Shown here: positions 1-45,400 of the stretch, piece after piece
Layout of the letters: the number at the start of each line of letters is the position of its first letter
How positions within the stretch are numbered: the first letter of the stretch is position 1
Virus record (IMG/VR): IMGVR_UViG_3300025000_000057
Direction: 5' to 3' (one strand)
DNA: 64,000 bases
Origin: a virus
Taxonomy: Duplodnaviria > Caudoviricetes
The notes under the pieces: generated by a model
Told to the model about the DNA's origin: nothing
The model's input: the letters and a program-made list of their open reading frames with translations, nothing else
The model's database searches: none
Position numbers and translations under genes: made by a program

Positions 1-2507
1 TTAACACGATGCATTGCTTGCCGTATAGTCAGGAGATTTGGATATACGATACTGTCGAAGAAGAACTCTTACAGATAGCTATTGGCAAATTGGCTGAAAT
101 CTTTGAACCCAATCGGTATCAAACTATCAGTCTTAACCATGTGACTGGTAAGGCAGAGATGAAGTATATTACAAGTGTCAGTAAGAAAGATAATAACCGT
201 AGACTTATTACTCTTATTGACAATGAAGGTAGGAAAAATACTACTACCGATAATCATGTTACTATGTGTATGGATGACTACGGTAATGTAACTGGCAGGT
301 TCCCAGAAACATTGAATCATGTTTTATCTCCAAGAGGTATCGATCTCCCACCGGTTAGAGGCGATATCGGTTTAGATCATTATCATTCACGAAAAGTTCA
401 AAACTACTTAGATGATCATATTGTAGTAACTATGGAGTTTGCCAAGATAGCTGGTTATTATGTGGCTGAAGGTAGTGTAGTAGGAGGATCTCAACTCTGC
501 TTTACAGTATGTTCTACTAATAAAGAAGATGAGTTAATCTCTCTTATGCAGCAATGTTATGGAGAGAATATTACTTATAATCGTTATCCTACACCTATCG
601 GTAAACCGAAGGATATACGGTTTAATGTAGGTAAGGTATGGGCCGATATGTTTAAAGACAAGTTCGGCTATGACGCTTATACTAAACATATTCCTGTAGA
701 GATCTTGTTTGCAGAAGATGAAGTACTTATATCATTCCTTAATGGGTACTTCAAATGTGACGGTAGTATTAAAGAGAACTATATTATAGCTACCACTGTA
801 AGTAAGAGATTACGCAATGAGTTAAATCTCATGCTTTTAAGGTTGCGTGAGCTTCCTCATATAGCCGAGAGAACTACCAGTTCGAATTACGGTACATCAC
901 TCAATTATGAGATATCTATTAGTGGAATTGCGGAGAATAGATTAGGATTAGAGTTTGGTTGTAAGGTTATGTATGAACAAAAGCATTACGACTACGAATT
1001 TCTGAAATCTCTAATCAAAGAAAACAATAAGCTAATCCAGTATAAGAAGATTAAGCCCCATGAAATAGATATATATGCTATGACAGACAAACGACTCGGG
1101 GCCGCTACTAACGTATTCCCCGTTTCTATTAATCAATGTCTTGAGTCTAACAGTGGTGATGAATACGTCTACGATTTATCTGTAGAAGATAATGAAACAT
1201 TCTTGACAGCCGAGTGTATCTTCGTTCATAACAGCAGGGGAGGGGGGCAGATCCCTTTCTCTTCTATCAACATAGGTAATGTGCAAAGTCCCGATGCTGC
1301 TAAGATCTGTGAATGGTTCTTAAGAGCTTTTAAAGCCGGTTTAGGGAATGGCGAGCAACCGATATTTCCTAACGTTTGCTTTAAGATTAAGAGCGGCGTT
1401 AATATGCATAAGTCGGATCCGTACTATCACCTATTTCGTTTGGCACAGGAAGTTTCAGCTAAACGGCTCAATCCTAGTTGGGTATTCTGCGACAGTAGTT
1501 TTAATAAAGACGGAGATATCTCTTATATGGGTTGTCGTACCCGTGTAGTAGCCGACCGTCATGGAGAATCTACTACAATTGAGAGAGGAAACGTAGGGTT
1601 TACCACAGAGAATTTACCCAGACTAGCTATAAAGGCTATGTTAAAGCATCCTGATGATACAGATGCCAGGTTAAGTTACTTCTTTGAATTGCATAATGAA
1701 GTATTAAACCTTATAGTACGGCAGCTCATGCATCGTTTTGAATATATATGTACATTAAAGGCTAAAGACTTTCCTTTCCTAATTGGTCAAGACTTATACA
1801 GGGATGCTGACAAATTAAATCCAGAAGATAGTATCTATCTAGCTGCTAGGCATGGTACACTTACACTAGGCTTTATTGGTTTAGCTGAATGTTTGAAAGT
1901 ACTTGTAGGTAAGTATCATGCTGAAAGTACAAATGCACTGGCCCTGGGTCATAAAATTATATCTTATATTCGCAAGATAGCCGATGAAGCATGCGAGAAA
2001 TACGACCTTAACTTCTCTGTTATTGCTACTCCGGCAGAAGGTTTATCGGGTAGGTTTACCAAACTTGACCGTGAAGAGTTTGGGACAATTCCCGGAGCGA
2101 CTGATAAGAAATACTATACAAACAGTTATCATGTACCGGTTGATTATCCTATTAGCTATTATGATAAAATAGCAATAGAGGGGCCATTCCATAAATATTG
2201 CAATGGTGGCCACATGAGTTACATTGAATTCGAAAGTATGCCGCAACACAATATCGATGCTATTGAGAATATAGTATTACACATGGCCGCTTGCGATATG
2301 GGTTACGCTGCTGTTAATTATCCAGTAGATTTGTGCAAGTCCTGTGGTACTCATAATAATATAATACCACATGGAGAACCCTGTCCTGTATGTGGAGAAA
2401 GAGATAAGATAGATAGGATTCGCAGAATAACAGGGTACATTTCAACACTTGAGCGCTTCAATGACGCAAAAGTAGCGGAAGAGACAGATCGCATACCTCA
2501 TGTGTGA
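1..2507 (+). CDS. nrdD: Class III anaerobic ribonucleoside-triphosphate reductase, intein-containing; 5' end lies outside the window
   Basis: Frame is open from the window edge (N-T-M-H at 3-14). Spliced junction reads NTMH/SRGGGQIPFSSINIG as in NrdD. YMGCR active-site motif, CKSC..CPVC zinc site and C-terminal RRITGY glycyl-radical motif are present. Confidence 0.96.
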   Translation, partial: NTMHCLPYSQEIWIYDTVEEELLQIAIGKLAEIFEPNRYQTISLNHVTGKAEMKYITSVSKKDNNRRLITLIDNEGRKNTTTDNHVTMCMDDYGNVTGRFPETLNHVLSPRGIDLPPVRGDIGLDHYHSRKVQNYLDDHIVVTMEFAKIAGYYVAEGSVVGGSQLCFTVCSTNKEDELISLMQQCYGENITYNRYPTPIGKPKDIRFNVGKVWADMFKDKFGYDAYTKHIPVEILFAEDEVLISFLNGYFKCDGSIKENYIIATTVSKRLRNELNLMLLRLRELPHIAERTTSSNYGTSLNYEISISGIAENRLGLEFGCKVMYEQKHYDYEFLKSLIKENNKLIQYKKIKPHEIDIYAMTDKRLGAATNVFPVSINQCLESNSGDEYVYDLSVEDNETFLTAECIFVHNSRGGGQIPFSSINIGNVQSPDAAKICEWFLRAFKAGLGNGEQPIFPNVCFKIKSGVNMHKSDPYYHLFRLAQEVSAKRLNPSWVFCDSSFNKDGDISYMGCRTRVVADRHGESTTIERGNVGFTTENLPRLAIKAMLKHPDDTDARLSYFFELHNEVLNLIVRQLMHRFEYICTLKAKDFPFLIGQDLYRDADKLNPEDSIYLAARHGTLTLGFIGLAECLKVLVGKYHAESTNALALGHKIISYIRKIADEACEKYDLNFSVIATPAEGLSGRFTKLDREEFGTIPGATDKKYYTNSYHVPVDYPISYYDKIAIEGPFHKYCNGGHMSYIEFESMPQHNIDAIENIVLHMAACDMGYAAVNYPVDLCKSCGTHNNIIPHGEPCPVCGERDKIDRIRRITGYISTLERFNDAKVAEETDRIPHV
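15..1232 (+). mobile_element. Intein (406 aa) with LAGLIDADG homing endonuclease domain, in nrdD
   Basis: Starts with Cys (CLPYSQEIW), block B TTTDNH, LAGLIDADG-like IAGYYVAEGS and FLNGYFKCDGS, block F VYDLSVEDNETF, ends VHN followed by +1 Ser. Confidence 0.95.
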
Positions 2508-3149: not shown

Positions 3150-3455
3150 ATGAGTTTTGCCAATCTTCTTAAAGAAGATATAATCGAATTTAAGACCCGA
3201 GTAAGGAATTCTTTTAGCAATAACCAATGCTCAGGTTATAGCGGGTTGTGCATAGTAGATGAAAACGGTAAAGAGCTTAAAAATAGCGTAGATTACATTA
3301 TAGATGGCGGTATTTTAACAGTAAAAGAGCATATCAATCCTATCGGTCTTATGATGCATGCTAGACTCGCACCTATGCCTCTTGAGAAACCTAGCTATGA
3401 AAAGTTTACATCTAACAATCCTGTAAAATGGTATAATAAACGACGCAGGAAGTGA
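3150..3455 (+). CDS. Hypothetical protein (101 aa)
   Basis: Start moved to the ATG at 3150 behind a GGTGA SD; the track start at 3102 overlaps the previous gene. Confidence 0.75.
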   Translation: MSFANLLKEDIIEFKTRVRNSFSNNQCSGYSGLCIVDENGKELKNSVDYIIDGGILTVKEHINPIGLMMHARLAPMPLEKPSYEKFTSNNPVKWYNKRRRK

Positions 3456-3460
3456 TTAGT

Positions 3461-3706
3461 ATGAATGATACAAATAAAGTTCAGGACTTAAAGAGCATCC
3501 CTGACGTTGAAATCGAGAAAAGATTTAGCTATCATCCTCCTACGGAAGAGCAGCCTCAGAAGTATGAGGAGATTCGCGGTATGGGTAAGGCTTTCGCAGA
3601 ACTTATCAATGAATTATGTCCTGACAGCATGGATAAACGCGAAGCTATAAAGAAGATTGAAGAGGCTGTATTCTGGGCCAATGCTTCAATAGCTCGTTAT
3701 AGTTAA
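3461..3706 (+). CDS. Acb2/Tad1-hairpin-like small protein, putative anti-defence nucleotide sponge
   Basis: RFSYHPP..Q..KYEEIR..GKAFAELINELCPDS.DKREAIKKIEEAVFWANASIAR resembles, from recall, small phage proteins annotated as Acb2/Tad1 domain. ATG at 3461 after AGGAAGTGA. Confidence 0.55.
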   Translation: MNDTNKVQDLKSIPDVEIEKRFSYHPPTEEQPQKYEEIRGMGKAFAELINELCPDSMDKREAIKKIEEAVFWANASIARYS

Positions 3707-3979: not shown

Positions 3980-4054
3980 AGGGATATAGTTCAATGGTAG
4001 AACGGCGGACTGTTAATCCGTATGTTGCTGGTTCGAATCCAGCTTTCCCTGCCA
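3980..4054 (+). tRNA. trnN: tRNA-Asn (GUU)
   Basis: Cloverleaf, anticodon loop CTGTTAA, T-loop TTCGAAT, encoded CCA. Confidence 0.95.
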
Positions 4055-4056
4055 AT

Positions 4057-4170
4057 GTGGCAGCTGCAAGCGGCGCTGCTTCTTGTTCGGATAGATTCTC
4101 TAGTTTATTTATTAAAGTGGACTAGAGAATCTATCCTCAAGAAGTACACGTAGTCCACTAAATTGCAGCA
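4057..4170 (+). ncRNA. Duplicated pseudoknot RNA motif, copy 1
   Basis: Conserved 20-nt 5' block and 27-nt 3' block shared with 5696-5821, around a long variable hairpin. Confidence 0.7.
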
Positions 4171-4173
4171 CAT

Positions 4174-4251
4174 GTCGGTGTAGTCCAATTGGCAGAGACA
4201 TACGGTTTAAGCCCGTACCAGTGATGGGTTCAAGTCCCTCCACCGATACCA
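4174..4251 (+). tRNA. trnL: tRNA-Leu (UAA), short variable loop
   Basis: Cloverleaf, anticodon loop TTTAAGC, A73, CCA; no long variable arm; T-stem has a bulge or mismatch. Confidence 0.85.
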
Positions 4252-4272
4252 ATAATATAAGGTGATGATATA

Positions 4273-4425
4273 ATGTCTAAGAAATCATGTTCAACTTGTT
4301 TGTATGGAAATTGCGATATAGAATTTTATGAATTAATTCCATGCATAGAATGTAATGAATTATTATTTTGGGAATTTAAAGACTTAAGTTTCTTAGATAT
4401 TGTAATACACTTTATAAATATGTAG
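4273..4425 (+). CDS. Small Cys-rich hypothetical protein (50 aa)
   Basis: AAGGTGA SD and ATG; MSKKSCSTCLYGNC...CIEC; below the ORF-track cutoff. Confidence 0.5.
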   Translation: MSKKSCSTCLYGNCDIEFYELIPCIECNELLFWEFKDLSFLDIVIHFINM

Positions 4426-4501
4426 GGGTGTAGCTAAGTTGGTCTAAGGCATACGGTTTTGATCCGTACATTCGTAGGTTCGAATCCTACTTCCCCTTCC
4501 A
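4424..4501 (+). tRNA. trnQ: tRNA-Gln (UUG)
   Basis: Cloverleaf, anticodon loop TTTTGAT, T-loop TTCGAAT, CCA. Confidence 0.9.
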
Positions 4502-4504
4502 TAA

Positions 4505-4577
4505 CGACGCTGAGTAGAGGTAGCTTGTCAGGTTCATACCCTGAAGGTCGTGGGTTCGAATCCCTCCCCTGAAACCG
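4505..4577 (+). pseudogene. Degenerate initiator-like tRNA-Met (CAU)
   Basis: Anticodon arm TCAGG-TTCATAC-CCTGA and T-arm are intact, but the acceptor strands do not pair and the end is CCG, not CCA. Confidence 0.55.
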
Positions 4578-4584
4578 TTATCAT

Positions 4585-4670
4585 GGAAGAGTGCCCGAGT
4601 GGTTAATGGGAGCAGACTGTAAATCTGCCGTGTAACAACTTCGTAGGTTCAAATCCTACCTCTTCCACCA
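4585..4670 (+). tRNA. trnY: tRNA-Tyr (GUA)
   Basis: Cloverleaf with long variable region, loop CTGTAAA, CCA. Confidence 0.95.
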
Positions 4671-4677
4671 TAAGTAT

Positions 4678-4759
4678 TAGAGTTGGCATATCTCTAGAGC
4701 TCACATACAATATTCAGTGTGCCCAATGGAACCCACTTAAGACTGGCACACTGAATGAC
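4678..4759 (+). ncRNA. Duplicated two-hairpin RNA motif, copy 2
   Basis: 82 nt, homologous to 3896-3977; 12-bp stem 4712-4723/4745-4756; ends 1 nt before tRNA-Ser. Confidence 0.6.
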
Positions 4760-4760
4760 T

Positions 4761-4845
4761 GGAAGGTTGACAGAGCGGTAATGTGCTTGATTGCTAATCA
4801 AAGGCCAGGGTAACACCTGCATAGGTTCAAATCCTATACCTTCCG
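4761..4845 (+). tRNA. trnS: tRNA-Ser (GCU), CCA not encoded
   Basis: Acceptor GGAAGGT/ACCTTCC, G73, loop TTGCTAA, long variable arm. Confidence 0.9.
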
Positions 4846-5308
4846 CTCTAAACTAATTGGTGGTGATTATTATTTCTAATAAATATAAAAAGATTAGAAT
4901 AAACAAAAATACCACCAATAACGAACATAGATTAGTTATGGAAGCAAAACTTGGTAGAGAGTTACTTAGTTCTGAAATTGTTCATCACAAAGATGAATGT
5001 AAAGGAAATAATGAACCTAGTAATTTAGAATTGACCACAAGAAAAGAACATAGTAGATTACATATGCTTGGTAAGAAATTACCCGAATCAACTAGAGAAA
5101 AGATGAGAAATAGACCTAGTATAAAGGGTTCTAATCATGTTAATGCAAAACTTAATGAAAAACAGGTTGTATATATTAGATGTTTACTTAGTAATGGCTA
5201 TGGTATTAGAGAATTAGGAAGATTATTTGAAATACATCACAGTGTAATATCTGATATAAAGAATCGTTTAATATGGAAACATGTATTATAAGGGCCTATA
5301 CCTTCCGC
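4833..5308 (+). repeat. 14-bp direct repeat (CCTATACCTTCCGC) flanking the HNH gene
   Basis: Copies at 4833-4846 (3' end of tRNA-Ser) and 5295-5308, the second followed by CA to give CCA. Confidence 0.85.
4857..5291 (+). CDS. HNH homing endonuclease with C-terminal HTH-like region
   Basis: EHRLVMEAKLGREL...IVHHKD..K.NN...NLEL...EHSRLH HNH motif; start codon uncertain (TTG 4857 or ATT near 4872). Confidence 0.9.
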   Translation: MVVIIISNKYKKIRINKNTTNNEHRLVMEAKLGRELLSSEIVHHKDECKGNNEPSNLELTTRKEHSRLHMLGKKLPESTREKMRNRPSIKGSNHVNAKLNEKQVVYIRCLLSNGYGIRELGRLFEIHHSVISDIKNRLIWKHVL

Positions 5309-5450
5309 CATTTATGGAATCATGGAGAGTCGCAATTTATAAGTCGATTCTCCCTCTGTCTCCGCCAGTATTAAATTGTAGACGGTTGATATTTTAATGG
5401 CTTTAGCATACCGGAACAATTAACTAAGCGAATAAAAGCCATTGCATTAC

Positions 5451-5535
5451 GGAGGGTAGGCCAACGGTGGTAAGCTGTCTTGAAAACAGTCGAGGTGTAA
5501 AAGCCTAGCGGGTTCGACTCCTGTACCCTCCGCCA
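5451..5535 (+). tRNA. trnS: tRNA-Ser (UGA)
   Basis: Acceptor GGAGGGT/ACCCTCC, G73, loop CTTGAAA, long variable arm, CCA. Confidence 0.9.
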
Positions 5536-5599
5536 GGGATAACTGCTGATCCCAACCACTTTATCATGTGCTCAAGGAGTTGCGACCCTTGGGCCTCCT

Positions 5600-5676
5600 C
5601 GGGATGTAGCTTAGTTTGGTAAGGCGCCTACTTTAGGAGCAGGTAACTGGGAGTTCAAATCTCTCCACCCAGACCA
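5600..5676 (+). tRNA. tRNA with UAG (Leu) anticodon on a tRNA-Pro-like body
   Basis: Loop TTTAGGA; closely similar to tRNA-Pro at 6921; two acceptor-stem mismatches; CCA. Confidence 0.75.
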
Positions 5677-5695
5677 GAGGGCTTCACGCCCTGTA

Positions 5696-5821
5696 GTGGC
5701 AGCTGCAAACGGCGCGACTTTAACCAGTGATATAACTCCATAAGCTGATGTAATATATCTGCTAATATGGGTAAAGGATCTATCACGGATTAAGGTACAC
5801 GTAGTCCACTAAATTGCAGCA
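5696..5821 (+). ncRNA. Duplicated pseudoknot RNA motif, copy 2
   Basis: 19/20 and 27/27 identity to the end blocks of 4057-4170; different internal hairpin. Confidence 0.7.
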
Positions 5822-5825
5822 TTAT

Positions 5826-5901
5826 CGCAGGTTGGAGCAATTGGAAGCTCGTCAGTTTCATAAACTGGAGGTTGCCGGTTCGAGTCCGGCACTCGCAACC
5901 A
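5826..5901 (+). tRNA. trnfM: tRNA-Met (CAU), initiator-like
   Basis: C1:A72 mismatch, loop TTCATAA, CCA; lacks the three consecutive G-C anticodon-stem pairs. Confidence 0.8.
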
Positions 5902-5913
5902 AACATTAAAGGA

Positions 5914-6216
5914 GTGATATTTATAGATACAAATAAATTTATATTTCATGTATGTACGTTTCCAGATGAACCAGATTTAATTGTAGTTACGATCAATACT
6001 AAAGAATGTTGGAATAATTATCATTATCTTACTGATAGTTATACCAAAGAAGAGTGGGATATACTTAATCCCATATTAGATGAACTTTCTTTAGTAAGTT
6101 TAGCGGATTCTTCTTTTGAATCTATGATTGATAGAGACATACCCACTCTTGTAAAATTACTTATTTCTAAAGGTTTAGAGCAAGATTCTGAGTTTAGTAA
6201 CTGGATGGAGATCTAA
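5914..6216 (+). CDS. Hypothetical protein (about 97-100 aa)
   Basis: AAAGGAGTGA SD at about 5908-5917; likely start ATA 5923. The track start at 5872 lies inside a tRNA. Confidence 0.6.
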   Translation: MIFIDTNKFIFHVCTFPDEPDLIVVTINTKECWNNYHYLTDSYTKEEWDILNPILDELSLVSLADSSFESMIDRDIPTLVKLLISKGLEQDSEFSNWMEI

Positions 6217-6247
6217 AGATGAGTAATAGGTTGTAACCGATCATCTT

Positions 6248-6328
6248 CCGGGTGTAGCCCAATTGGTAGAGACATACGGTTTAAGCCCGTACCAGTGATT
6301 TAGGGTTCGAATCTCTCCATCCCGACCA
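6248..6328 (+). tRNA. trnL: Second tRNA-Leu (UAA), short variable loop, partly degenerate
   Basis: Anticodon arm identical to 4174 copy; weak T-stem; 3' acceptor strand CATCCCG-A-CCA identical to tRNA-Pro. Confidence 0.65.
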
Positions 6329-6702
6329 AAAATTAATTTAGGTGATGATTTAATGAACTTTAAGGAGTGAATAATATATTCGCAAAAAGTCATTATAATT
6401 GTTCTAATAATAGTAGTGAATTAGATGGTGTATATGTATTTGTTATGTCTGGCATTGAAAAAGATATGCTCGAAGAGGCTATAGGAAATGTAAATTTCGT
6501 TCCTAAAGATGTTTAGATAGGATTTGTAATTTAAAATCTATCGGTAAAGCATTTAGAAGAATCAATAACCCGATAGAATGTAATATTTCATATACGAAAG
6601 CACTTTTACAATTATTATTACAGTTGGAAGGAATTAAAGATGACAATTAAAAGAAAATTAGTATTTGTTATAACAATGGAATTTGATATGAAACTTATTT
6701 AA

Positions 6703-6777
6703 GGGCCTTTAGCTCAATGGTAGAGCATCCGGCTCATAACCGGTTGGTTGGGAGTTCGAATCTCTTAGGGCCCACCA
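6703..6777 (+). tRNA. tRNA-Ile2-like (CAU; lysidine type)
   Basis: Cloverleaf, loop CTCATAA, GGGCCTT acceptor resembling bacterial Ile2 tRNAs, CCA; elongator Met not excluded. Confidence 0.8.
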
Positions 6778-6920
6778 GAGCCTTATTAATAAGGCAGGAT
6801 TGACTACACCTTGAAGTAGTTGGGTTTCGGGCTGTACCCGGCATCGATAAGTATGTCAAAACAGTACTAACTTAGTGCTTCGACACTTTGACCGGGTCTT
6901 CCTATCTCCCCGGTCATTGT

Positions 6921-6997
6921 CGGGATGTGGCCTAGCTTGGTAAGGCGCCTGTTTTGGGAACAGGAAATCGGGGGTTCAAATCCCTCCATCCCGACCA
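6921..6997 (+). tRNA. trnP: tRNA-Pro (UGG)
   Basis: C1-G72, A73, loop TTTGGGA, CCA. Confidence 0.95.
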
Positions 6998-8659: not shown

Positions 8660-8992
8660 ATGATCGAGTACGCTATATTTATATGGACAAGATTTATCGA
8701 TCTTACCTGGTGGCAAATGATTCTATGGATATGTTATCTGTTTTACTTTGGGGTAAGGGCTCGCGATTTCTGGATAGAGACAAGAGAAGGAGGCTTAATA
8801 AAGGGATACAGGCATGTGATGTTTGGATGTGATAAATACTTCAGGGTATATCATATTTTTAGAATCGTATTTGATATACCACCGGCAATTATAGGGTTAT
8901 TCTTTCCTATACTGCGTAAGGTATTCTCGTATAAGATTTATACATTTAAGAATGATCCTAAGAATAACTTCAATAGTAATAGTGATTTATGA
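8660..8992 (+). CDS. Hypothetical membrane protein (110 aa)
   Basis: GAGGTGA SD; two hydrophobic segments. Confidence 0.8.
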   Translation: MIEYAIFIWTRFIDLTWWQMILWICYLFYFGVRARDFWIETREGGLIKGYRHVMFGCDKYFRVYHIFRIVFDIPPAIIGLFFPILRKVFSYKIYTFKNDPKNNFNSNSDL

Positions 8993-9150
8993 ATAATGTA
9001 GTCGATGTGTTTAGAAATCATGAAGGATATTACATTCTTTTCAAGAGTGGTAGACTACGTAAAGCACCTAAATGGTATTACGATAGAGCTGCTGCTCACG
9101 TTAGGGAAAGACTATTTAAGCAGAGAATAAAAAGCGAAAGGAAACGGTGA
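8989..9150 (+). CDS. Small basic hypothetical protein (53 aa)
   Basis: ATGA overlap with previous stop; open to TGA at 9150. Confidence 0.55.
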   Translation: MNNVVDVFRNHEGYYILFKSGRLRKAPKWYYDRAAAHVRERLFKQRIKSERKR

Positions 9151-9172
9151 TACTAACACATGAGTAGCACTT

Positions 9173-9283
9173 ATGAATACTAAGACATGGATTATACTAA
9201 CTGTAATAGCAATTGTAACTGGATTAATAACCGGTTACTATATGTTCGATGATTTTTGGGACAATATTAAAGTTAATGAGTAA
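9173..9283 (+). CDS. Small membrane peptide (36 aa)
   Basis: MNTKTWIILTVIAIVTGLITGYYMF; ends at the terminator. Confidence 0.45.
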   Translation: MNTKTWIILTVIAIVTGLITGYYMFDDFWDNIKVNE

Positions 9284-9310
9284 AGACGGGAGCAATTAAG
9301 CCCCGTCTTT
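9283..9310. terminator. Likely bidirectional terminator at the strand switch
   Basis: AAGACGGG...CCCGTCTT hairpin between converging genes. Confidence 0.65.
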
Positions 9311-10207
9311 CGTATTGAATAACTGTATTTTTCCTTCGGTACTACTCTCGATCCATTCGTCTGTAAATCCATTCTCGTAAGAGGTAAAGAACCAGACTAC
9401 ATTTGTTTCCGCACATAACGCAGAAAGCTCTTCAGTACGTTTCCATGTTGTTGTAGTACATAATACGATCGGGAATTGTAACTCACTGTCTTTCTGCCAA
9501 TGCCGGCTATCAAAATACAATTGATACCTGGCTATTTTCTCCTTCCACTGCTTTAAAGACATCGTTCCTCTATCGTGCTCGTAAAAGAAATGGAACCCAT
9601 CTTCTTTATTAAACCAGTACTGACAATACCCATCCGGCTCTAACCTATAATTAAGTTCATCCATTTCAAACGATACATAATTATGATGCTCTACCTTCCA
9701 CACTCCAGGGAGATGGCCCGCTACCTTAGCGTTATTGACCAGCCATTCTCTGAAGCTATTAATCTCTATAATATGGGCTAAGTAAGGTATTTGTACATCA
9801 TTCCTTTCTTTCTTCCACTTTAATTCTTTCATAGTACATCCCCACCATCCTGCTAGTATCATAGCCCCTATAACATCAAGTGTTACATACTGTGGAGAAC
9901 TCCCCTTATTTAACCCAGGGTCTACAAAGAATCGGTCAATTATATGCCACCGGTAATATTGTTTAAGCCTCCGCCTAGCTATGATGTCTGCGATCTTATT
10001 CGGGTTACCATTAGAGTCTATACCAAAGAATTCACTACCCAGGTGTCTTGGTATCACACATTTGCGGTAATATACCGCCTCCAGAACCTTCAAATCCCGG
10101 GGTTGAAGTACTCGACTTTTTAATAGCTCCTGGTATAGCCTTAAGGGATCCTCTAGGTTTATCCTTTCGTACTTTGATATTTTGCGGTTGCTTTTGAATG
10201 GTAGCAT
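9296..10207 (-). CDS. Replication-relaxation (Replic_Relax) family protein
   Basis: N-terminal wHTH-like RDLKVLEAV...ARRRLKQY, then LAHIIEIN, LEPDGY and FYEHDRGTM motifs. Confidence 0.85.
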   Translation of the reverse strand: MLPFKSNRKISKYERINLEDPLRLYQELLKSRVLQPRDLKVLEAVYYRKCVIPRHLGSEFFGIDSNGNPNKIADIIARRRLKQYYRWHIIDRFFVDPGLNKGSSPQYVTLDVIGAMILAGWWGCTMKELKWKKERNDVQIPYLAHIIEINSFREWLVNNAKVAGHLPGVWKVEHHNYVSFEMDELNYRLEPDGYCQYWFNKEDGFHFFYEHDRGTMSLKQWKEKIARYQLYFDSRHWQKDSELQFPIVLCTTTTWKRTEELSALCAETNVVWFFTSYENGFTDEWIESSTEGKIQLFNTKDGA

Positions 10208-12647
10208 CTGTTACCGTATCCTCCTTGGTAGTCTTGTATCTTGCTTCTATATCTCTAAAGCACTGCATAATTGACACATGATCTCTTGTATGGAGTTTAT
10301 TAATAGTTTCAGTAACCTTTCCGTAATCCTTAAACAGTTTCCAATATAAAGGAGTATAGAAGGTGAAGGGTTCGGGTGATAATTTCTTCATCCTACAAAC
10401 TCCTTCAAGTCCTTCGTTTATATCACAAGTAAAGCTCGTCATATCCTGAGATTCAAAGCCCGGAAACATCTTGGAGATAACCGGGGCCGAAGCGTCTCCA
10501 ATATTCATAGCGACCTGTGTAAATGTATTATCAGCAATAATATCAAATATCCTATCCGGCAACTGGCTTTTAGCCTGGTGAGTTAAGATAAGACCATTAC
10601 CACATTCACGAGCCATAGCTAGGAGTCTTTCAAACTCAACAGGATCTTTAGCAAATTCCTCGAATTCGTCTAGGATAGTAACATGAGTCTCTCTGTCATT
10701 CTCGTGCCGACCATCTTTTAACCTTTTAAAGGTATCTTGCCGTATCATAGTCATTAACATAGTGGCAAAGAGCCTTTGAATTTCAGGAGTATTAGTCCCT
10801 ATATTGAGATTGATTAATACAATCTTCTTCTCATTCATAAATCTCTCCCAATTTAAAACGTTACTTCTTTGAGAGAGCATCATACGAGGTCTAGTACTTT
10901 GCATAATCTTCTCTAACTTATTAATAATCGGCTGAGCATCCGGGTCATCATAAGCATTTTTCTTCCCTACGAACTTCTTCCAGTACTCATAAACTTCTGT
11001 GTACTTCCCCTGTTGGTATAACCTCTCTAGATCTTCTAATCTTCTTCTACGATAATTACTATCAGTAAACATTCGGTATACTTCCATTATGGTACCATTC
11101 TTATCATTGACGGAAACGGCTAACACAGCCTGTCGCAGTACCTTCTGACTTCGAGCTTGAATGGATTTCTCTCCAAAGGCACTAATGAATATATCCACAA
11201 TTAGGTTTGCTAAATCATATGGTGGCATACTTACAGCCATGATATTCATTGGTATAAAGAAATCATCACTAGAGAGGTCTACGTATACGACACGCTCTCT
11301 TTCACTCTTATTTAGATACCCTATAAATCTATCCAAAGTGGTACCCTTAACATCAAAGAATGTAAGTCCGGCTTTTTTAATAACAGCAAGAGCCATGGAT
11401 ATTAACATAGTACTCTTACCAGCACCGGTACCTCCTATAATATAAGCATGTTGTCTTAGCATCTTTACATCTCTAAAGGCAAGCCATTTAGTTCTACCCC
11501 TAAATGTAGAGTATCCAAATGGTATTGCATTATCGTTAATGGCATCCCAGAATGTTTTGTATGTCAGGACTTCTTCTGGAACGGGTAGTTTCTTACTCTT
11601 GAGTCTTTCCACATAGGGTACTCTTTTATCCGGGAAGTGTACAAAATAAGCAAGTTCATTACTTGATAAAAGGTTCTCTGTTACATAAGGAGGTATCTTT
11701 CTTTTACAGAAGTTATCAATCCATTTATTCGTAGGTTTTACCTTATTTACTATAAAGCTATTACCATCACTTATTGTGGCAAAAGCGCTGGCCATAGTAG
11801 ATAAGTTACTCATAGCTACAGCATCGTTACTAGCTATGGCTATAATGCGAATATGGGTATCAAATAGTATCCCGCTGTTAATCTTATCTTTCATCTTTTT
11901 AATATCTATGTTACTGTACTTGGGTGCTGGTATATTCTTAGTACCTAGTATGTAAATTGCATTTCCTAGTGTTAGTATAGGCCCGAATACCTCTGTAATC
12001 ATCTTAAGGTTACTGTTTAATTTAAGAGGTTCGCTATGGGTTTTTGCATAGTTATTGAGATAGAATTTACCTTTCTCAATATATCTACCGGATACCGGTC
12101 TTGTTAAAATCTGTACTATCACCTCGCAACCTGATGCTAAATTTGTACCTGCGGATATTATATTAGTTACAGGGTCTCCAGGCATCTTCTCTCCACGAAT
12201 CATCTCTATATTGAAGATATAGTTCTTTGCTAATTCAAGTTCGATTGCTTTAACCGACCGCCCTTTGAATCTATCCAGAGTTAACGGATCTTTAATAGGT
12301 TTTAACTCAGCAGCTTTATGCACGGCATTTAAGGTTCGCTGCATAGTATTATCCAGTCTACGAGGGTACCATTGAATCATCTTAGCTTTATGCTCTGAGA
12401 AATGGAATTCAGTAGAGAAATGCATTGGCACCTCGCATCTACCAAGTACGCCTAAAGAATCCCAGTAATTCTTTAAGGCTTGCGCCCCTAACTCTGAATT
12501 CCTTTCGACCAATACCTGCCTTGTAACTCCGGTGGTTAATACGTCGTCCATTTGTTTTCCAACCATATAATCTCTGATAGCTTTAATGCCGGCACTGGTA
12601 GTAATAGTTGCTCCTAATACTCCTCCTATGATTAAACTTACTCCCAT
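10035..12647 (-). CDS. VirD4/TraG-like type IV coupling-protein ATPase (870 aa)
   Basis: N-terminal TM helix, HAYIIGGTGAGKST Walker A, FFDVKG, ILDEFEEF Walker B, ARECGNGLILTHQ..SQL. Confidence 0.88.
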   Translation of the reverse strand: MGVSLIIGGVLGATITTSAGIKAIRDYMVGKQMDDVLTTGVTRQVLVERNSELGAQALKNYWDSLGVLGRCEVPMHFSTEFHFSEHKAKMIQWYPRRLDNTMQRTLNAVHKAAELKPIKDPLTLDRFKGRSVKAIELELAKNYIFNIEMIRGEKMPGDPVTNIISAGTNLASGCEVIVQILTRPVSGRYIEKGKFYLNNYAKTHSEPLKLNSNLKMITEVFGPILTLGNAIYILGTKNIPAPKYSNIDIKKMKDKINSGILFDTHIRIIAIASNDAVAMSNLSTMASAFATISDGNSFIVNKVKPTNKWIDNFCKRKIPPYVTENLLSSNELAYFVHFPDKRVPYVERLKSKKLPVPEEVLTYKTFWDAINDNAIPFGYSTFRGRTKWLAFRDVKMLRQHAYIIGGTGAGKSTMLISMALAVIKKAGLTFFDVKGTTLDRFIGYLNKSERERVVYVDLSSDDFFIPMNIMAVSMPPYDLANLIVDIFISAFGEKSIQARSQKVLRQAVLAVSVNDKNGTIMEVYRMFTDSNYRRRRLEDLERLYQQGKYTEVYEYWKKFVGKKNAYDDPDAQPIINKLEKIMQSTRPRMMLSQRSNVLNWERFMNEKKIVLINLNIGTNTPEIQRLFATMLMTMIRQDTFKRLKDGRHENDRETHVTILDEFEEFAKDPVEFERLLAMARECGNGLILTHQAKSQLPDRIFDIIADNTFTQVAMNIGDASAPVISKMFPGFESQDMTSFTCDINEGLEGVCRMKKLSPEPFTFYTPLYWKLFKDYGKVTETINKLHTRDHVSIMQCFRDIEARYKTTKEDTVTDATIQKQPQNIKVRKDKPRGSLKAIPGAIKKSSTSTPGFEGSGGGILPQMCDTKTPG

Positions 12648-13042
12648 TAGTACATCCCCGCAAAGTCCATTACTTTATTAACAACACCTCCAGCTAAGTC
12701 ACAGATAAGTCCTACGCATACCATAGTACCAATAAAGACTAGAAGCCTAGCTACGTTGCCATAACCGATGGTAGAGGCTATGGTAGCAGTAATTCCGCCT
12801 ACAATAGCTATCAAAAGAACCTCTATAATGATAAATCCAGGGCCTCCAATTCCGAAGGTAGCGGCCGCCGCAGCAGCTTTAGTACTACCGCTTATCGCTG
12901 CCATGACAGGTGCCGGTGTTGTTAACTTTACAGCCTCTACAGCTACAAAAGCCATTGCACAGAATCTACGGAGAGATTTAAGCTCTTCAACTTTCTTCAC
13001 GTTGGGTTTAGGCTTTCTCACATTACATACTATCATTCTCAT
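12647..13042 (-). CDS. Membrane protein, SpoIIIAC/AD- or VirB2-pilin-like C-terminal two-TM hairpin
   Basis: ATG at 13042 behind AAAGGAG; signal-like segment plus two TM helices. Confidence 0.7.
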   Translation of the reverse strand: MRMIVCNVRKPKPNVKKVEELKSLRRFCAMAFVAVEAVKLTTPAPVMAAISGSTKAAAAAATFGIGGPGFIIIEVLLIAIVGGITATIASTIGYGNVARLLVFIGTMVCVGLICDLAGGVVNKVMDFAGMY

Positions 13043-13043
13043 A

Positions 13044-13358
13044 TTACAGTCTCCTTTCATTTAAACTCTGTTTTACATACTCTTCTTCCTCACTGTTTTT
13101 AATCATCTGGCCCCATTCATTATGCAGCTCTACTTCTTTAACCTTCCCATCTTTAACGATAGCCCAGAAAATCTCTTTTCCTATACCACCTCTTACAATT
13201 TTCCCACGGTAATCTTCTTGCATAACCTGCACTCTCTTTAGTAAATCTCCATTTCCCTGGCTACTTGCGGGAATCTGACCACTACTAGAGCAGTGAGAGC
13301 CAAGAAAAGCTCCGACCCCTAAGATTACAACACCCTTGATAAGCCATAGCGGAATGAT
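13044..13358 (-). CDS. Small protein with N-terminal hydrophobic anchor; non-canonical start (ATC 13358 or ATT 13355)
   Basis: The track ORF 13044..13232 extends upstream without stop to IIPLWLIKGVVILGVGAFLG, directly after a GGAGGTG SD. Confidence 0.7.
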   Translation of the reverse strand: MIPLWLIKGVVILGVGAFLGSHCSSSGQIPASSQGNGDLLKRVQVMQEDYRGKIVRGGIGKEIFWAIVKDGKVKEVELHNEWGQMIKNSEEEEYVKQSLNERRL

Positions 13359-13406
13359 AAATCAACACCTCCTATAAATATACTATAGGATACCGCTGTT
13401 CTTGCG

Positions 13407-13413
13407 TAGTATG
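13407..13413 (-). promoter_or_regulatory. CATACTA sporulation-sigma-type -10 element upstream of the coupling-protein operon
   Basis: Matches B. subtilis sigma-G -10 consensus CATAHTA; no convincing -35. Confidence 0.35.
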
Positions 13414-13474
13414 AGGAACAGAGGCTACAAGATTAGTAATAACGATGATTGTCAAAACGATAACGATGATACCT

Positions 13475-13693
13475 TTAATTAACGATTTCACTCCCCTTTT
13501 GTTCACCTCTATTTACCTCCTTGATACCTTCTTTAATCTCTTCAACCTCAGCCTGTAGTGCATCTAAGTATATGATTAACCTATTGCCGCTAGTAGCATT
13601 TATCTTGGTAGGTTTGCTACACTCTTCACGAAACTTTCGCATAGTCTTCATAGCCATGTCTAAGTTCTTTTCAAAGCATTGAATATAATCCAT
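13475..13693 (-). CDS. Small coiled-coil hypothetical protein (72 aa)
   Basis: GGAGG SD and ATG. Confidence 0.8.
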   Translation of the reverse strand: MDYIQCFEKNLDMAMKTMRKFREECSKPTKINATSGNRLIIYLDALQAEVEEIKEGIKEVNRGEQKGSEIVN

Positions 13694-13820
13694 TTAGTTA
13701 AACCTCCTATAAGGTATTCGTTAACACATATAAGACAACAACACCGGATTAACTGGCGTCACAAAGATACACTACATCTATTCATAATAAGATCTAGACT
13801 ACCGATACCGGTTTGTTAAT

Positions 13821-13848
13821 ATATATGCTAACATAGGTTTATTTATCT
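13821..13848 (-). promoter_or_regulatory. Possible sigma-E-like promoter
   Basis: AGATAAA-14 bp-CATATAT on the - strand; AT-rich context weakens the call. Confidence 0.3.
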
Positions 13849-13905
13849 AGTTTATTTTATATACCAAGTAAATAGTGCCTATAAAGAAAAGAAAACCCTC
13901 TTAAG

Positions 13906-14214
13906 TTAAGAGGGTTTTATATATTCCATGAACCTATGAGTAAACTTACTGAATTTAAGATGCCTATCCAGAGCCAGGTGAGATAGGTACCCTAAACCCA
14001 GTGGAAACGAAATAACCATTAGAATTAAAGCTACATCAATCGTATGAAGGAATCCACGATGTTTGGTAAATAACCACATTGGTAGAAACCGTCCAACATA
14101 ACTATTACGACAATCAGCATCCGGGAGAAGGCTACCGATTGCAACTAGGACAGTATCTAATCCCGATAATTTACCAAGCACGACTCCAGCAATTAAATGC
14201 GTTATTCCACTCGT
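13906..14214 (-). CDS. YdjM-like membrane-bound metal-dependent hydrolase; apparent ACG start
   Basis: (T)SGITHLIAG, GSLLPDAD, HRGFLH, GYLSHLALD motifs; GGAGAGGTGA SD 6 nt before ACG at 14214. Confidence 0.85.
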   Translation of the reverse strand, partial: TSGITHLIAGVVLGKLSGLDTVLVAIGSLLPDADCRNSYVGRFLPMWLFTKHRGFLHTIDVALILMVISFPLGLGYLSHLALDRHLKFSKFTHRFMEYIKPS

Positions 14215-14241
14215 CTAGCATCACCTCTCCCCCCTTGTCTA

Positions 14242-14270
14242 ATAGTATGTACTATGTGACATGGTTTATA
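14242..14270 (-). promoter_or_regulatory. Sigma-G-like (forespore) promoter
   Basis: GTATA-17 bp-CATACTA on the - strand, about 28 nt upstream of the hydrolase start. Confidence 0.55.
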
Positions 14271-14290
14271 CCTATTTTCTATAAATATTA

Positions 14291-14307
14291 TACGACATTA
14301 TACGACA
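14291..14307 (-). promoter_or_regulatory. Tandem Spo0A-box-like sites
   Basis: TGTCGTA-TAA-TGTCGTA on the - strand; each 6/7 to TGNCGAA, 10-bp period. Confidence 0.5.
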
Positions 14308-14363
14308 TTTTGTGTAGGTTTAATAATATGTAATATATGACATTAAATAAGCGGATTGCCCGC

Positions 14364-14639
14364 TTATTTAATGTCAAGCTTTGTAGGTTCTGATGTAATA
14401 CTGGTATTGCCTCTCTTATCGACTGCTGTAACAATAAAGTAATAACAGCCATAGCGTAGCTCTGGAGTTGTAAACTTAGTACTTGTAATAAGATTCTTAT
14501 TTAAGTTTGTGTACGGGCCTTCCTGCCGATTAGATACCAGTATGTTATATCCGGCTAAGTCAGTTGCTCTACTAGGCTTCCATGTTATTTCAGCACCCTG
14601 GCTATTCAAGGCTACATAAGAAGATGCAGCCGTATACAT
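14364..14639 (-). CDS. Single fibronectin type III domain protein (91 aa)
   Basis: ITWKPS...LAGYNIL...YYFIVTAVDKRGNTS FN3 pattern; TAATG coupling to upstream gene. Confidence 0.8.
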   Translation of the reverse strand: MYTAASSYVALNSQGAEITWKPSRATDLAGYNILVSNRQEGPYTNLNKNLITSTKFTTPELRYGCYYFIVTAVDKRGNTSITSEPTKLDIK

Positions 14640-42457: not shown

Positions 42458-45400
42458 TTAAACTACGTACATCACAAAGGATGTAATAAGATTATCTTTA
42501 ATTGCTTTTATTAGTAACTTCTTATTCTTATTCGGTATAGTTTCGTAAGGTATCTCTACACCTACCTTACCACTAACTAACTGATATATGTGTATCTTAT
42601 TACCTATGACAACTTTAATATCGCCATTTAACGGTTGATAATTACCATCAGTTCCTGTAATGGTTAGTGTAGCAACTCCACTACTTAAAATAGATGGCCC
42701 AGTAATTATCAACTTACCAGTGATAGCTTCCGGAGAAAGCTTTACGACTTTAGAAGTTTCTACTCCTGTAGCATGAGCCTTTATTACTATTTGCTTAGCT
42801 TGGGTTATAACCTTTGATGGTACGATGTACTTAGCAATTGCTACTCCGTTAAAGTTTGTTTCTGTATTAGCCGGTGTAACAACACCATCGGTACTTGTAA
42901 ATGATACGGGTTCGTGAGGTATTGGATTTCCAAACTCGTCACGAACTATGGCAAATATACTTGCCTGGTCTATACCATTACCCAGGAGAGTATCTGGCGA
43001 AACATGTATATCTATCGTAGTAGGTACCGGTATCCTATCGCTGATAAATAAGAATCTACCTTCTTCTATGCTCATAATAGGATTTAAGTTTACTTCTTCG
43101 GCCTTATAGTACGATGACCAGTTATTAGTCTCGTAATATACCTTGATTTTACGGTCTAGACCTAACACGGGATCGTAAACTTTTATCTTAATCAGGTCGT
43201 TTTCGGGTTTGTAGTTATAATCGACATAGAAACTACCCGTTAAACAATACCGAACCCGGATTTTTGTATTTTCACTTACCTTGTACGCCAGCCATATTAT
43301 ACTGTCGTATAATATTACATCTTCGATATCGACCGACTCCCACTTATCAAAGCCAGTCCAATCTATGGCAATATCTAGACTATTAGGATCTATACCCATG
43401 TGAGCTAGATCGACCCTATTAGTACCATCACCGATTATAATTTCAGTATTTATAAGGGTAGGCTTACCGTCACTATCGGTAAAGAACACTTGGCGTAACG
43501 GTTCTTCTCTATTATCGTAGACTACAATAGGAGCCCCTTGTCTAGGTACAGGATATACCTCGATTTCGTTAGCCGTATCTAAAACAAAGTTATCAGTTAT
43601 CGTTACATCAATCTTCCTAACTTCTTTGATAGCAGCGTGTACAGATGTTGTACCATTGCTATCATATCTAAATTCGACTCCGACTGGGCCAAAGACTCTG
43701 TATCTACGGACATTTTCGTACTCAGCTTCATTTAGATAGATATACTCATCCACCATTTGCTTTAAGGTTTTACCCTCTGTTATATCATAGAACAAACCAT
43801 CTGTTTTTAAAGCAGCTGATTTATTAATCTTAACATCTGTCGGATAAATACCTTGAGGTCTGGATAACTCGATCCGTACACTACCGATATAGGGTGGGAA
43901 GATATCTTCCATAGTAGCTACAGCACCTAGTACTATCCGTTCAATAACAGGAGCTTGTCTTCCATCTCCTTTCCTGGCTACAACCTTCCACTTAATATAT
44001 GGTTCTTGAGTGGATTTGATAAACCCTGTTACATCGTCTACCAGTACCCATTCATTCCATGGGCCCATAATACTCGAACTTGTTGAGGTATTTAATTCGA
44101 GTATAGAGCCTTCGGGCACCCATCCATCGATCCATAGTATATCCCACTTATGAATAAACTTTGATAAGCTCTCAGACGATATTGGGTTAGATATTAGTAC
44201 CATATCTGATAGTAAATCTTGTGCAGTGATATAACCCTCATCGTTAATTACAACATTATGGCACTCTATATCTGAAAGCATATTTCCGTCCCAGGCAAAC
44301 TCTGTATTGTTTGGTACCTGGATAGTACCTTGCTGCATAATGAGCCTATATTGAATTTCTGTACCCATTGGTACCAATGGTTTTGTACCATTAGCGATTA
44401 AATACCAATTACTAATTTCACCATTAACCTTAAACCTAACTTCTGTGTTAAGGCTACCTTGTGGAATATAACCTTTAGCTTCGAAGTATTTCCATTCTTG
44501 AATACCACTACTTACCGATATCCAATCGGACGTGAAGATACCTGCTTGCCACCCGGTATTAGATTGATTCAAGGTTAGGGATTTATTCTCGTTATTTATA
44601 ATAACTCCGCCAGTCGTAACTCCTGCAGCAAAGTTCTCTACTACGTGTCCTATAACTTGACTGTCAGCATTTTGCTCTGCATCTGTTTCAAATATAATTT
44701 CCAGTTTGATACTCTCAGTATCAAACTCTTTAATAACAATAGGTTTAGCCTCGGGTCTTGTATCTACAAATAGATAATATTCATCACTACCAAGATAATA
44801 GTAACCCGACTTAATTAACGGATTCCATCTACCTAATTCAGGTATTATTGTTTTCAAGTTAAGGTAGTAAGTACGCCAGCCGGGTTCTGATTCATCAATA
44901 TGATCTATCTCGAATTCGATATTCGGGTCGTCCGTATTTAAATTAATATCAAAGTCTTCGCCAGGGTAACTGGGAATACGAATTCTAATCAATCCGTTTT
45001 CCCACGATATATCGGTACCTCCTGGTAGGTTCTGTCCGCCCGGCGATATCCATGGTTTAACGGGTGCGTATATAGAACCGGGCGCTACCGGTGTCGTATA
45101 GTAACCGCCAGAATAACTTCCGCCGCCAGGGTAACCTCCAGGATAAGCCCCGGGATAATTACCAGGGTAACCTCCTGGATAACCTATCCCTCCTGGATAG
45201 CTACCGGTACCGCCGCCTATAGCACCTCCTGGATAACTACCCCCAATAGAACCGCCTATACTACCTCCGCCAATTCCATAACTGTCAAAACCGGCCGCAC
45301 AACCGCAACAATACATATTCTCTTTAGTTCTCTTTAAGATTTGTTCTACCCATGATTTTTCATAGCCATCTGGTTTTAACTCGATATGGTAATATTTAAT

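Follow-up and report, generated by a model that had tools for sequence, protein, structure and literature searches.

A predicted DNA translocation operon pairing a relaxase-family nuclease with a coupling-type ATPase in a large tailed phage

Why should a tailed phage carry a relaxase and a coupling-type ATPase, and what could the two proteins do in a genome where no mating-pair apparatus accompanies them? The question is raised by a minus-strand operon in the IMG/VR virus record IMGVR_UViG_3300025000_000057. A stretch of 64,000 nucleotides of this 137-kb record (rated 61% complete), namely the minus strand of its bases 50927-114926, was analyzed here and is called the window. A 219,483-bp contig (GCA_902725955.1) is a copy of the same phage, which is also present in groundwater metagenomes. 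In 2012, Pathria et al. described a 'DNA translocation operon' in phages 0305phi8-36 (orf200-207) and SPO1, and deletion of orf200-207 from 0305phi8-36 left plaque size and yield unchanged (PMC3357382). The operon kind is therefore already known, and the window operon is, to judge from its proteins, a further example. It is probable, in our view, that the phage carries an accessory operon like those of 0305phi8-36 and SPO1, for which a nick-and-pump mechanism is predicted. The nuclease would bind and then nick or cut a specific DNA site, the simplest target being the phage's own DNA. The ATPase would form a hexamer bound to the membrane, in which the protein and its partners together contribute about four transmembrane helices to each subunit, and would pump DNA out of the infected cytoplasm across the membrane independently of virions, in a process dispensable for lytic growth. 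To the known operon we add the conserved active sites, the relaxase fold, the two-domain build of the ATPase, the sub-threshold SpoIIIAC-like partners and the host range.

A sequence-only reading of this DNA had described a four-gene minus-strand operon at 9296-13358 with abutting or overlapping genes. The four open reading frames (ORFs) are as described, with Pfam support for the ATPase and the Replic_Relax protein, and the tight spacing was confirmed. The gene of the small anchored protein overlaps that of the 137-amino-acid (aa) membrane protein by 17 nt, the latter gene and that of the ATPase share an ATGA junction (stop over start) at 12647, and the ATPase tail overlaps the relaxase gene by 173 nt. 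This last overlap falls in the disordered ATPase tail and the conserved relaxase N-terminus; the conserved N-terminal RKISKY motif supports the long relaxase start.

The ATPase, a member of the VirD4/VirB4 superfamily, consists of an N-terminal transmembrane helix, a DUF8128 domain resembling the N-terminal domain of VirB4, a P-loop motor with a helical insert, and a disordered C-terminal tail of ~60 aa. Pfam analysis gave a DUF87 match, a TrwB_AAD_bind match of 25.4 bits (cut-off 20.5) and a T4SS-DNA_transf score just below its cut-off (19.4 versus 20.1 bits). The protein also matches phrog_5156 at 3e-53, and its relatives bear PF26449 (DUF8128), PF02534, PF10412 and PF12696. Its structural model, with a predicted local distance difference test (pLDDT) score of 82, shows a long N-terminal helix, an alpha/beta N-domain and the motor domain, in which helices 476-605 sit between Walker A and B. 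The closest structural matches of the motor domain are Thermoanaerobacter VirB4 (Z 27.2), DndH-C (Z 25.9), TrwB (Z 24.8), HerA (Z 23.3) and DotL (Z 22.7), with FtsK (Z ~18) well under VirB4 and TrwB; at full length, the model matches only to TrwK/VirB4. The modeled fold alone is thus ambiguous between VirB4 and a coupling protein. VirB4 signatures gave no Pfam match to AAA_10 or CagE_TrbE_VirB, and TIGR00929 reached E 0.078; a search of the PDB with the ATPase profile was uninformative, its best match being DotL at E 0.006. Because plasmids encode a separate true VirB4 beside the homologous pair, we place the phage ATPase in the coupling-protein position and not in that of VirB4. On the evidence of the model, the most fitting description is that of an ATPase in the coupling position whose N-domain resembles that of VirB4.

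Around 14 relatives of the ATPase were found at 33-62% identity, and the wider family comprises 2,042 clusters (50% identity) at E<=1e-30. The Walker A, Walker B and HQ motifs vary little or not at all: nearly every residue of Walker A (G405-K411) is invariant, as is the D660-E661 pair, while H690 is invariant within the clade and Q691 nearly so. In a near-identical metagenomic copy (L017:1948-4613) the ATPase is called as two ORFs of 411 and 475 aa; the gene may be broken in this variant, or the assembly may be wrong.

The Replic_Relax protein scores 56.6 bits against PF13814 (cut-off 25.3; residues 77-239) and matches phrog_9381. It is composed of a winged helix-turn-helix domain (~22-128) and a PD-(D/E)XK nuclease domain (~141-299). 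Foldseek rows for its AlphaFold2 model (pLDDT 87) were weak, and both domains were resolved by VIA-align: the first as a MarR-type winged helix-turn-helix (Z 9.5, residues 26-124), the second against BstEII (Z 8.2 across 132 residues, 141-299) and also AF1548, Cdn1 and VC1899. Among 13 homologues, residues E173, H175, P191-D192, E210 and K224 do not vary and D212 hardly does, a pattern indicating that the restriction-nuclease-like active site is intact.

A membrane translocase paired with a nuclease might also serve exclusion or conflict between elements, by intercepting, expelling or cutting the DNA of competing phages and plasmids, with a benefit felt only in the wild. The motor is of the HerA/DndH/VirB4 class, whose members pair with nucleases in defence systems, the ATPase gave a PADLOC match to mad8 at 1e-15, and the operon occurs in lytic as well as temperate phages and is dispensable in single-phage laboratory culture (PMC3357382). 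However, the mad8 match is limited to the ATPase core in its generic part, PADLOC matches nothing in the nuclease, which is a member of the PF13814 relaxase family, conjugation modules are the closest relatives outside phages, and the restriction to phages of endospore-formers (see below) would be left unexplained. We regard exclusion as improbable. A known defence system was rejected as a candidate identity, PADLOC having returned the generic mad8/HerA core and nothing for the nuclease.

Is there a channel through which such a pair could work? No PF12846 (AAA_10) or PF03135 (CagE/VirB4) was found in the 137-kb record, with the remaining ~82 kb of the 219-kb genome outside the search, and tblastn with TcpC, TcpD, TcpE, PrgI and VirB4 of pair-bearing plasmids gave no match within the same record. 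The pair is present in each of five IMG/VR relatives, of which four have a completeness rating of 100% and three of these four have terminal repeats. AAA_10 was found neither in the five relatives nor in SPO1, 0305phi8-36, Skywalker and Goe16, whose genomes are complete. The absence of type IV secretion system (T4SS) genes, noted by the sequence-only reading for the window, thus extends to the 137-kb record and eight complete related phages. Its description of a relaxase and coupling-type ATPase module with membrane partners of its own and no mating-pair apparatus is supported, and its forespore idea, taken up below, also stands on this point, as a full T4SS was not met elsewhere in these sequences.

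In INPHARED, megablast of the region returned nothing and tblastn of the ATPase returned only Goe16 at 22% identity; the link was made by tblastn with the relaxase, which retrieved 30 phage records, all of Bacillus phages and with SPO1 gp27.3 among them, and then by profiles. The clade ATPase profile matches SPO1 gp27.4 at 2e-43 (positions 63-730), 0305phi8-36 orf201 at 1e-32, DetA at 2e-27 and the Embleya type IV coupling protein at 2e-45, where blastp with the window ATPase gave 7e-12 for gp27.4 and 5e-9 for orf201. The clade relaxase profile matches gp27.3 (1e-25), Skywalker gp19 (1e-22) and orf200 (2e-17), and misses the CloDF13 ORFs, DetB and the B. subtilis plasmid relaxase. Profile matches to the 0305phi8-36 and SPO1 core proteins extend over their full length. 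In IMG/VR, a single-protein scan found nothing and an alignment-based scan found six loci. The same gene order is present in at least nine independent phage contigs, and the contexts retrieved for the relatives are all phage-like, with YdjM, the hairpin protein, a ~60-aa helix protein, the ATPase and the relaxase in succession, followed by convergent genes for dUTPase, ribonucleotide reductase, RuvC, Thy1 and a sigma factor. In phage copies the relaxase always lies beside the ATPase.

In 0305phi8-36, orf200 encodes a relaxase related to CloDF13 MobC, orf201 a VirD4-like translocase and orf202-204 membrane proteins, with orf206 and the MreB/ParM-like orf207 completing the operon; the SPO1 members are gp27.3, gp27.4, gp27.5-27.8, gp27.9 and gp29.1, and homologues were noted in SPO1, GBSV1, BV1 and the Gamma group (PMC3357382). 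We find the SPO1 locus in the order gp29.1, 27.9, 27.8, 27.7, 27.6, 27.5, 27.4 (a 906-aa ATPase) and 27.3, and the Skywalker operon as gp15-gp19 with the integrase gp20 adjoining. Shared with 0305phi8-36 and SPO1 are the relaxase following the ATPase, the preceding small membrane proteins including a signal-plus-hairpin protein, and the lack of VirB4 (for the window phage, in the 137-kb record). As in those phages, the operon encodes membrane-attachment proteins, here the 137-aa hairpin protein, the 104-aa anchored protein and the ATPase helix. The operon of 0305phi8-36 also occupies the same genomic spot, after the genes for RecB, RuvC, orf193 and an Ig-fold virion protein, with an inversion in the window phage. 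Unlike the two cultured phages, the window has no ParM/MreB-like gene, no obvious ribbon-helix-helix (RHH) gene and no VirB6-like polytopic protein, and here the small anchor helix and the ATPase form one chain. In most relatives this helix is a separate gene of ~60 aa whose stop overlaps the ATPase start; the fusion is present in the window phage and its nearest relative P0002, which has a similar helix.

The window phage, which is uncultured, is tailed, with tail-sheath and major-head genes, and its sheath is 38% identical to that of Bacillus phage 0305phi8-36 and 32% to that of a Moorella phage, the only cultured relatives found by sheath. Based on the flanking genes and the tail sheath, we assign the phage as a relative of 0305phi8-36. 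In the ATPase tree, the window clade is well supported, and its distance from the orf201/gp27.4/Skywalker group is no smaller than that from versions of plasmids or of the candidate phyla radiation (CPR); branches are long and no firm conclusion was drawn. The module may have been replaced, and not inherited, in the lineage of the window phage.

In 0305phi8-36, SPO1, the Skywalker neighborhood and three metagenomic relatives, the operon begins with ParM/MreB-like and RHH-like genes. The ParM/MreB-like gene was detected in L020, L023 and L025 (blastp E 1e-29 to 4e-37), and orf207/gp27.9 gave no blastp match in the 137-kb record. Pathria et al. had found this gene only in 0305phi8-36 and SPO1, so that it is not universal (PMC3357382). 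RHH-like proteins were recognized by eye at L036:11921-12187 (0305phi8-36 orf206), L034:4135-4560 (SPO1 gp27.8), L012:137-340 and L010:8367-8633; if this call by eye is right, they would form with ParM a ParMR-type pair inside the operon. Such genes bear on an explanation by replication and partition, in which the Replic_Relax protein would nick DNA to start rolling-circle-type replication and the ATPase, with the ParM and RHH proteins of relatives, would segregate phage genomes. This idea agrees with the PHROG label of phrog_9381, 'replication initiation by nicking', and with the position of the operon next to genes of replication and nucleotide metabolism. The label, however, is an annotation and not an experiment, the window operon has no ParM, membrane anchoring and hairpin partners would be unexplained, and the 0305phi8-36 operon deletion is viable with unchanged plaque size and yield (PMC3357382). 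We therefore consider a role in replication or partition highly improbable.

A tblastn search with SPO1 gp27.4 gave at least 146 phage records, and 145 of 146 have endospore-forming hosts. Counted by the first word of the organism name, they comprise Bacillus (133), Geobacillus (5), Deep-sea (thermophilic phage D6E; 2), Lysinibacillus (2) and one each of Alicyclobacillus, Brevibacillus, Clostridium and Microcystis. The phages cover unrelated types, including SPO1-like myoviruses, Tsamsavirus siphoviruses, phage G, 0305phi8-36 and small temperate phages. No phage of Staphylococcus, Listeria, Enterococcus, Streptococcus or Lactococcus is among the gp27.4-matching records, and two plasmid relaxases used as tblastn queries, DetB and Embleya RR, matched no phage, though Staphylococcus plasmids carry the pair. 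The survey of homologous modules proposed by the sequence-only reading therefore shows no common occurrence in phages of non-sporulating hosts.

That reading had offered the hijack of a host conjugation channel as its second possibility. In this explanation, the phage relaxase and coupling protein would dock to the T4SS of a co-resident plasmid or integrative and conjugative element, and phage or target-site DNA would reach cells that virions cannot infect. It is the textbook reading of CloDF13 (MobB and MobC) and of streptococcal class-8 integrative and mobilizable elements, which carry a relaxase and coupling protein without a channel (PMC5357655, PMC4993578). The pair and its order match conjugative and mobilizable elements, the examined phages have no channel of their own, and temperate phages with the pair carry integrases beside it (PMC3357382; Skywalker gp20). 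The nearest plasmid homologues, moreover, sit within full T4SS clusters on plasmids of Bacillota and Actinomycetota, in agreement with the statement of the sequence-only reading that related pairs occur on Bacillota elements. On the other side, the pair is kept in strictly lytic, quick-killing phages (SPO1, 0305phi8-36), the constant extra membrane proteins would be superfluous for a simple mobilization module, and the genomes measure 100-220 kb, with SPO1 DNA being modified. Furthermore, Staphylococcus, Streptococcus and Enterococcus hosts are rich in conjugative elements; because matching phages are absent from these non-sporulating Bacillota genera, and from Lactococcus and Listeria as well, hijack is disfavored, and it would leave the confinement to endospore-formers unexplained. 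Mobilization through a host channel thus seems unlikely to us.

The two small proteins preceding the ATPase are the candidate membrane partners. To include its N-terminal hydrophobic anchor in frame, the first must be read from an ATC codon at 13358, which lies 9 nt past an AGGAGG; standard gene callers give a form of 59-62 aa without the anchor. In the closest relative (L039), a 112-aa orthologue has ATG at the position of the 13358 codon, with an alignment that spans the anchor (E 1e-17). The anchored protein of the sequence-only reading is thus upheld as to its anchor, kept in frame and in the orthologue, with the reservation that its start is an ATC that gene callers pass over; either this codon serves as a rare start, or the gene was knocked down recently. 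The family of the 137-aa hairpin protein (family 2 in our clustering) is found at eight of nine loci. Seven of eight relatives score 16.1-23.9 bits against SpoIIIAC (PF06686) over the whole 56-position profile, the cut-off being 24. The Atlas feature score of the hairpin protein for SpoIIIAC/AD, 0.79, lies within the chance range, and hhalign of the hairpin family versus orf204 and gp29.1 detected no similarity, the likeness being one of architecture only.

The ATC start would suit one further explanation, that the module is cargo, selfish or in decay: part of the transfer region of a plasmid, caught by phages and functionless for them. The near-identical L017 copy with its ATPase in two ORFs and the lack of a laboratory phenotype (PMC3357382) point the same way. 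By contrast, the Walker A/B and nuclease residues are invariant though homologues are only 33-62% identical, the gene order is retained over very different phages, and 146 phage records contain the ATPase. We hold it very unlikely that the module is cargo of this kind.

Returning to the translocation operon that we favor, where would the DNA be delivered? In a host that sporulates or grows in chains, the destination may be an adjoining compartment, most of all the forespore, leading to virospore formation; we put this forward tentatively, as a possibility worth pursuing and not as the expected outcome. The forespore is preferred because the phage copies are nearly confined to phages of endospore-formers and because the membrane partner is SpoIIIAC/AD-like. 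Genes for small acid-soluble spore proteins of the alpha/beta type in two related phages (L012:452-634 and G004:C1:22929-23093, the latter L038), one of them only ~2 kb upstream of the module, would also fit. So would the virospores of SPO1, which gets trapped in spores; a virospore assay has been published, and the operon's ParM gene 27.9 was discussed in that context (PMC12991052). A more specific proposal is a self-sufficient, pared-down DNA translocon of endospore-former phages, in which the relaxase-like nuclease would mark the phage genome and the ATPase would work at the sporulation septum with the SpoIIIAC/AD-like partner, possibly plugged into the host SpoIIIA-SpoIIQ channel. In this full form we judge it rather unlikely.

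Several observations weigh against delivery to the forespore. The SpoIIIAC scores of the relatives are all sub-threshold, the window's own 137-aa protein gave no PF06686 match at E<=1, and the 0305phi8-36 and SPO1 counterparts of the hairpin protein lean to T4SS_pilin; the SpoIIIAC/pilin-like label of the sequence-only reading is accordingly fair for the family and leaves the window copy without a score. The host of the window phage is judged from relatives alone (Bacillus and Moorella phages), the single Microcystis phage record is the one non-endospore-forming host in the gp27.4 list, and the host-range pattern may be partly due to gene exchange between phages that share hosts. Spo0A boxes are not enriched (7 versus 5.2 expected), with none close to the operon. 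A repeat search for an oriT, which the sequence-only reading had proposed, revealed no oriT-like repeat array or conserved non-coding element at 8900-14400. The VirB4 search stopped short of the ~82 kb mentioned above, and no coupling protein is known to move DNA without a channel. Taken as a whole, the sequence-only interpretation keeps its module, its hijack alternative has become less likely, and its forespore reading stays a prediction.

The operon as a transcription unit appears larger than first described (Table 1). It starts after a terminator-like hairpin and runs on the minus strand from 13693 to 9296. Two further small ORFs (72 and 44 aa) together with that preceding hairpin suggest that the unit begins near 13.85 kb, a little outside the limits given by the sequence-only reading. 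Conservation of the 72-aa protein is limited to near-identical copies. The YdjM gene is the upstream neighbor of the module in six of nine loci compared.

Table 1. Positions of the operon genes and adjoining features in the window.
Feature	Position	Strand	Remarks
YdjM-family membrane hydrolase-like gene, 91 aa	13906..14181	-	PF04307, 38.6 bits
Terminator-like hairpin	13892..13918	-	12-13 bp stem and T run; closes the upstream late/YdjM unit
72-aa soluble coiled-coil-like protein	13475..13693	-	strong Shine-Dalgarno; first gene past the hairpin
44-aa single-transmembrane ORF	13372..13506	-	GTG start behind AGGAGG; candidate gene, status uncertain
~104-aa small protein, N-terminal membrane anchor then Ser/Gly-rich linker	13044..13358	-	start codon ATC
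137-aa membrane protein, signal-like helix and conserved C-terminal two-helix hairpin	12647..13060	-	SpoIIIAC/AD or T4SS-pilin type
870-aa ATPase	10035..12647	-	DUF87, TrwB_AAD_bind, phrog_5156
303-aa Replic_Relax / MOBC-type protein	9296..10207	-	PF13814, phrog_9381

Upstream of the compact unit, and likewise on the minus strand, many structural genes stand in succession, the last being the YdjM-like gene, followed by the hairpin. Beyond the operon, genes converge from the opposite strand, including those for a Dam methylase, for tRNAs and for an NrdD with an intein. The NrdD (anaerobic ribonucleotide reductase) gene, at window 3-2507 (+) and extending upstream of the window, has an intein with a LAGLIDADG homing endonuclease; the complete gene encodes 1128 aa and carries an ATP-cone. 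Between the NrdD region and the Dam methylase lies a cluster of 11 tRNA genes (3980-6997, +; Asn, Leu x3, Gln, Tyr, Ser x2, Met x2, Pro). At ~3452-3706 (+), an 84-aa gene with the Pfam domain Acb2_Tad1_hairpin (the anti-CBASS/Thoeris sponge family) is called in the near-identical NCBI copy. Giant ORFs of 3482 aa at window 42458-52906 (-) and of 1933, 2700 and 2073 aa at genome 25554-45685, outside the window and upstream of it, have neighbors of 801-1194 aa, one with Big_2 domains; the giant ORFs may be fiber or tail proteins akin to the curly fibers of 0305phi8-36.

The ATPase is widespread, being present in at least 146 sequenced phages of Bacillus and relatives including SPO1, and additionally in uncultured phages of 100-220 kb. 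As SPO1 is culturable and a virospore assay has been published (PMC12991052), spore entry and its rivals are testable. If spore entry is true, it would explain how lytic phages actively gain long-term survival in spores, and a septal translocon, should the operon encode one, would be the first case of a phage encoding its own machine to go dormant together with its host. If it is false, the operon would still be a rare case of viruses reusing conjugation parts.

How does the module compare with known DNA-moving systems? SpoIIIE/FtsK and Streptomyces TraB are channel-independent pumps of double-stranded DNA. They serve as a working analogy only, that of a membrane-anchored hexameric motor of related fold moving DNA between compartments without a T4SS. 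Unlike FtsK/SpoIIIE, the phage ATPase scores 14.5 bits against PF01580 (cut-off 24), has no single-chain four-helix N-terminal domain and no gamma domain, and is instead partnered by a nuclease. Full-length relatives at ~21-24% identity are found among the DUF8128-type ATPases of Patescibacteria (CPR), for example a Saccharibacteria protein, whose N-domain is likewise VirB4-like.

Closer in organization are the plasmid pairs. In DetA/DetB of the staphylococcal pWBG4-family plasmids and in the B. subtilis and Embleya plasmid pairs (labeled 'DUF87/T4CP' and 'replication-relaxation family protein'), a two-domain ATPase of ~800-910 aa lies directly before a PF13814 protein, as in the phage, with phage-plasmid identity of ~21-23%. 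These pairs head full Tcp/PrgI-type T4SS clusters with a true VirB4, whereas none was found in the phages; in pWBG707 and an Embleya plasmid, the true VirB4 (AAA_10, 212 bits) is encoded a few genes from the DetA-type ATPase. DetB belongs to the MOBC class and DetA is a VirD4/MobB-type coupling protein (PMC4993578), and PF13814 corresponds to MOBC (PMC5357655). Within this class of relaxases, which are related to restriction endonucleases, TraX of pAD1 combines a winged helix-turn-helix with a PD-(D/E)XK domain (PMC12857230), and the modeled phage relaxase has the same TraX-like build. CloDF13, for which the link rests on the HHpred result of Pathria et al. for orf200 (E 4e-22; PMC3357382) and not on a profile match obtained here, offers the parallel in gene content, a relaxase with its own coupling protein on a channel-less element, as in the phage.

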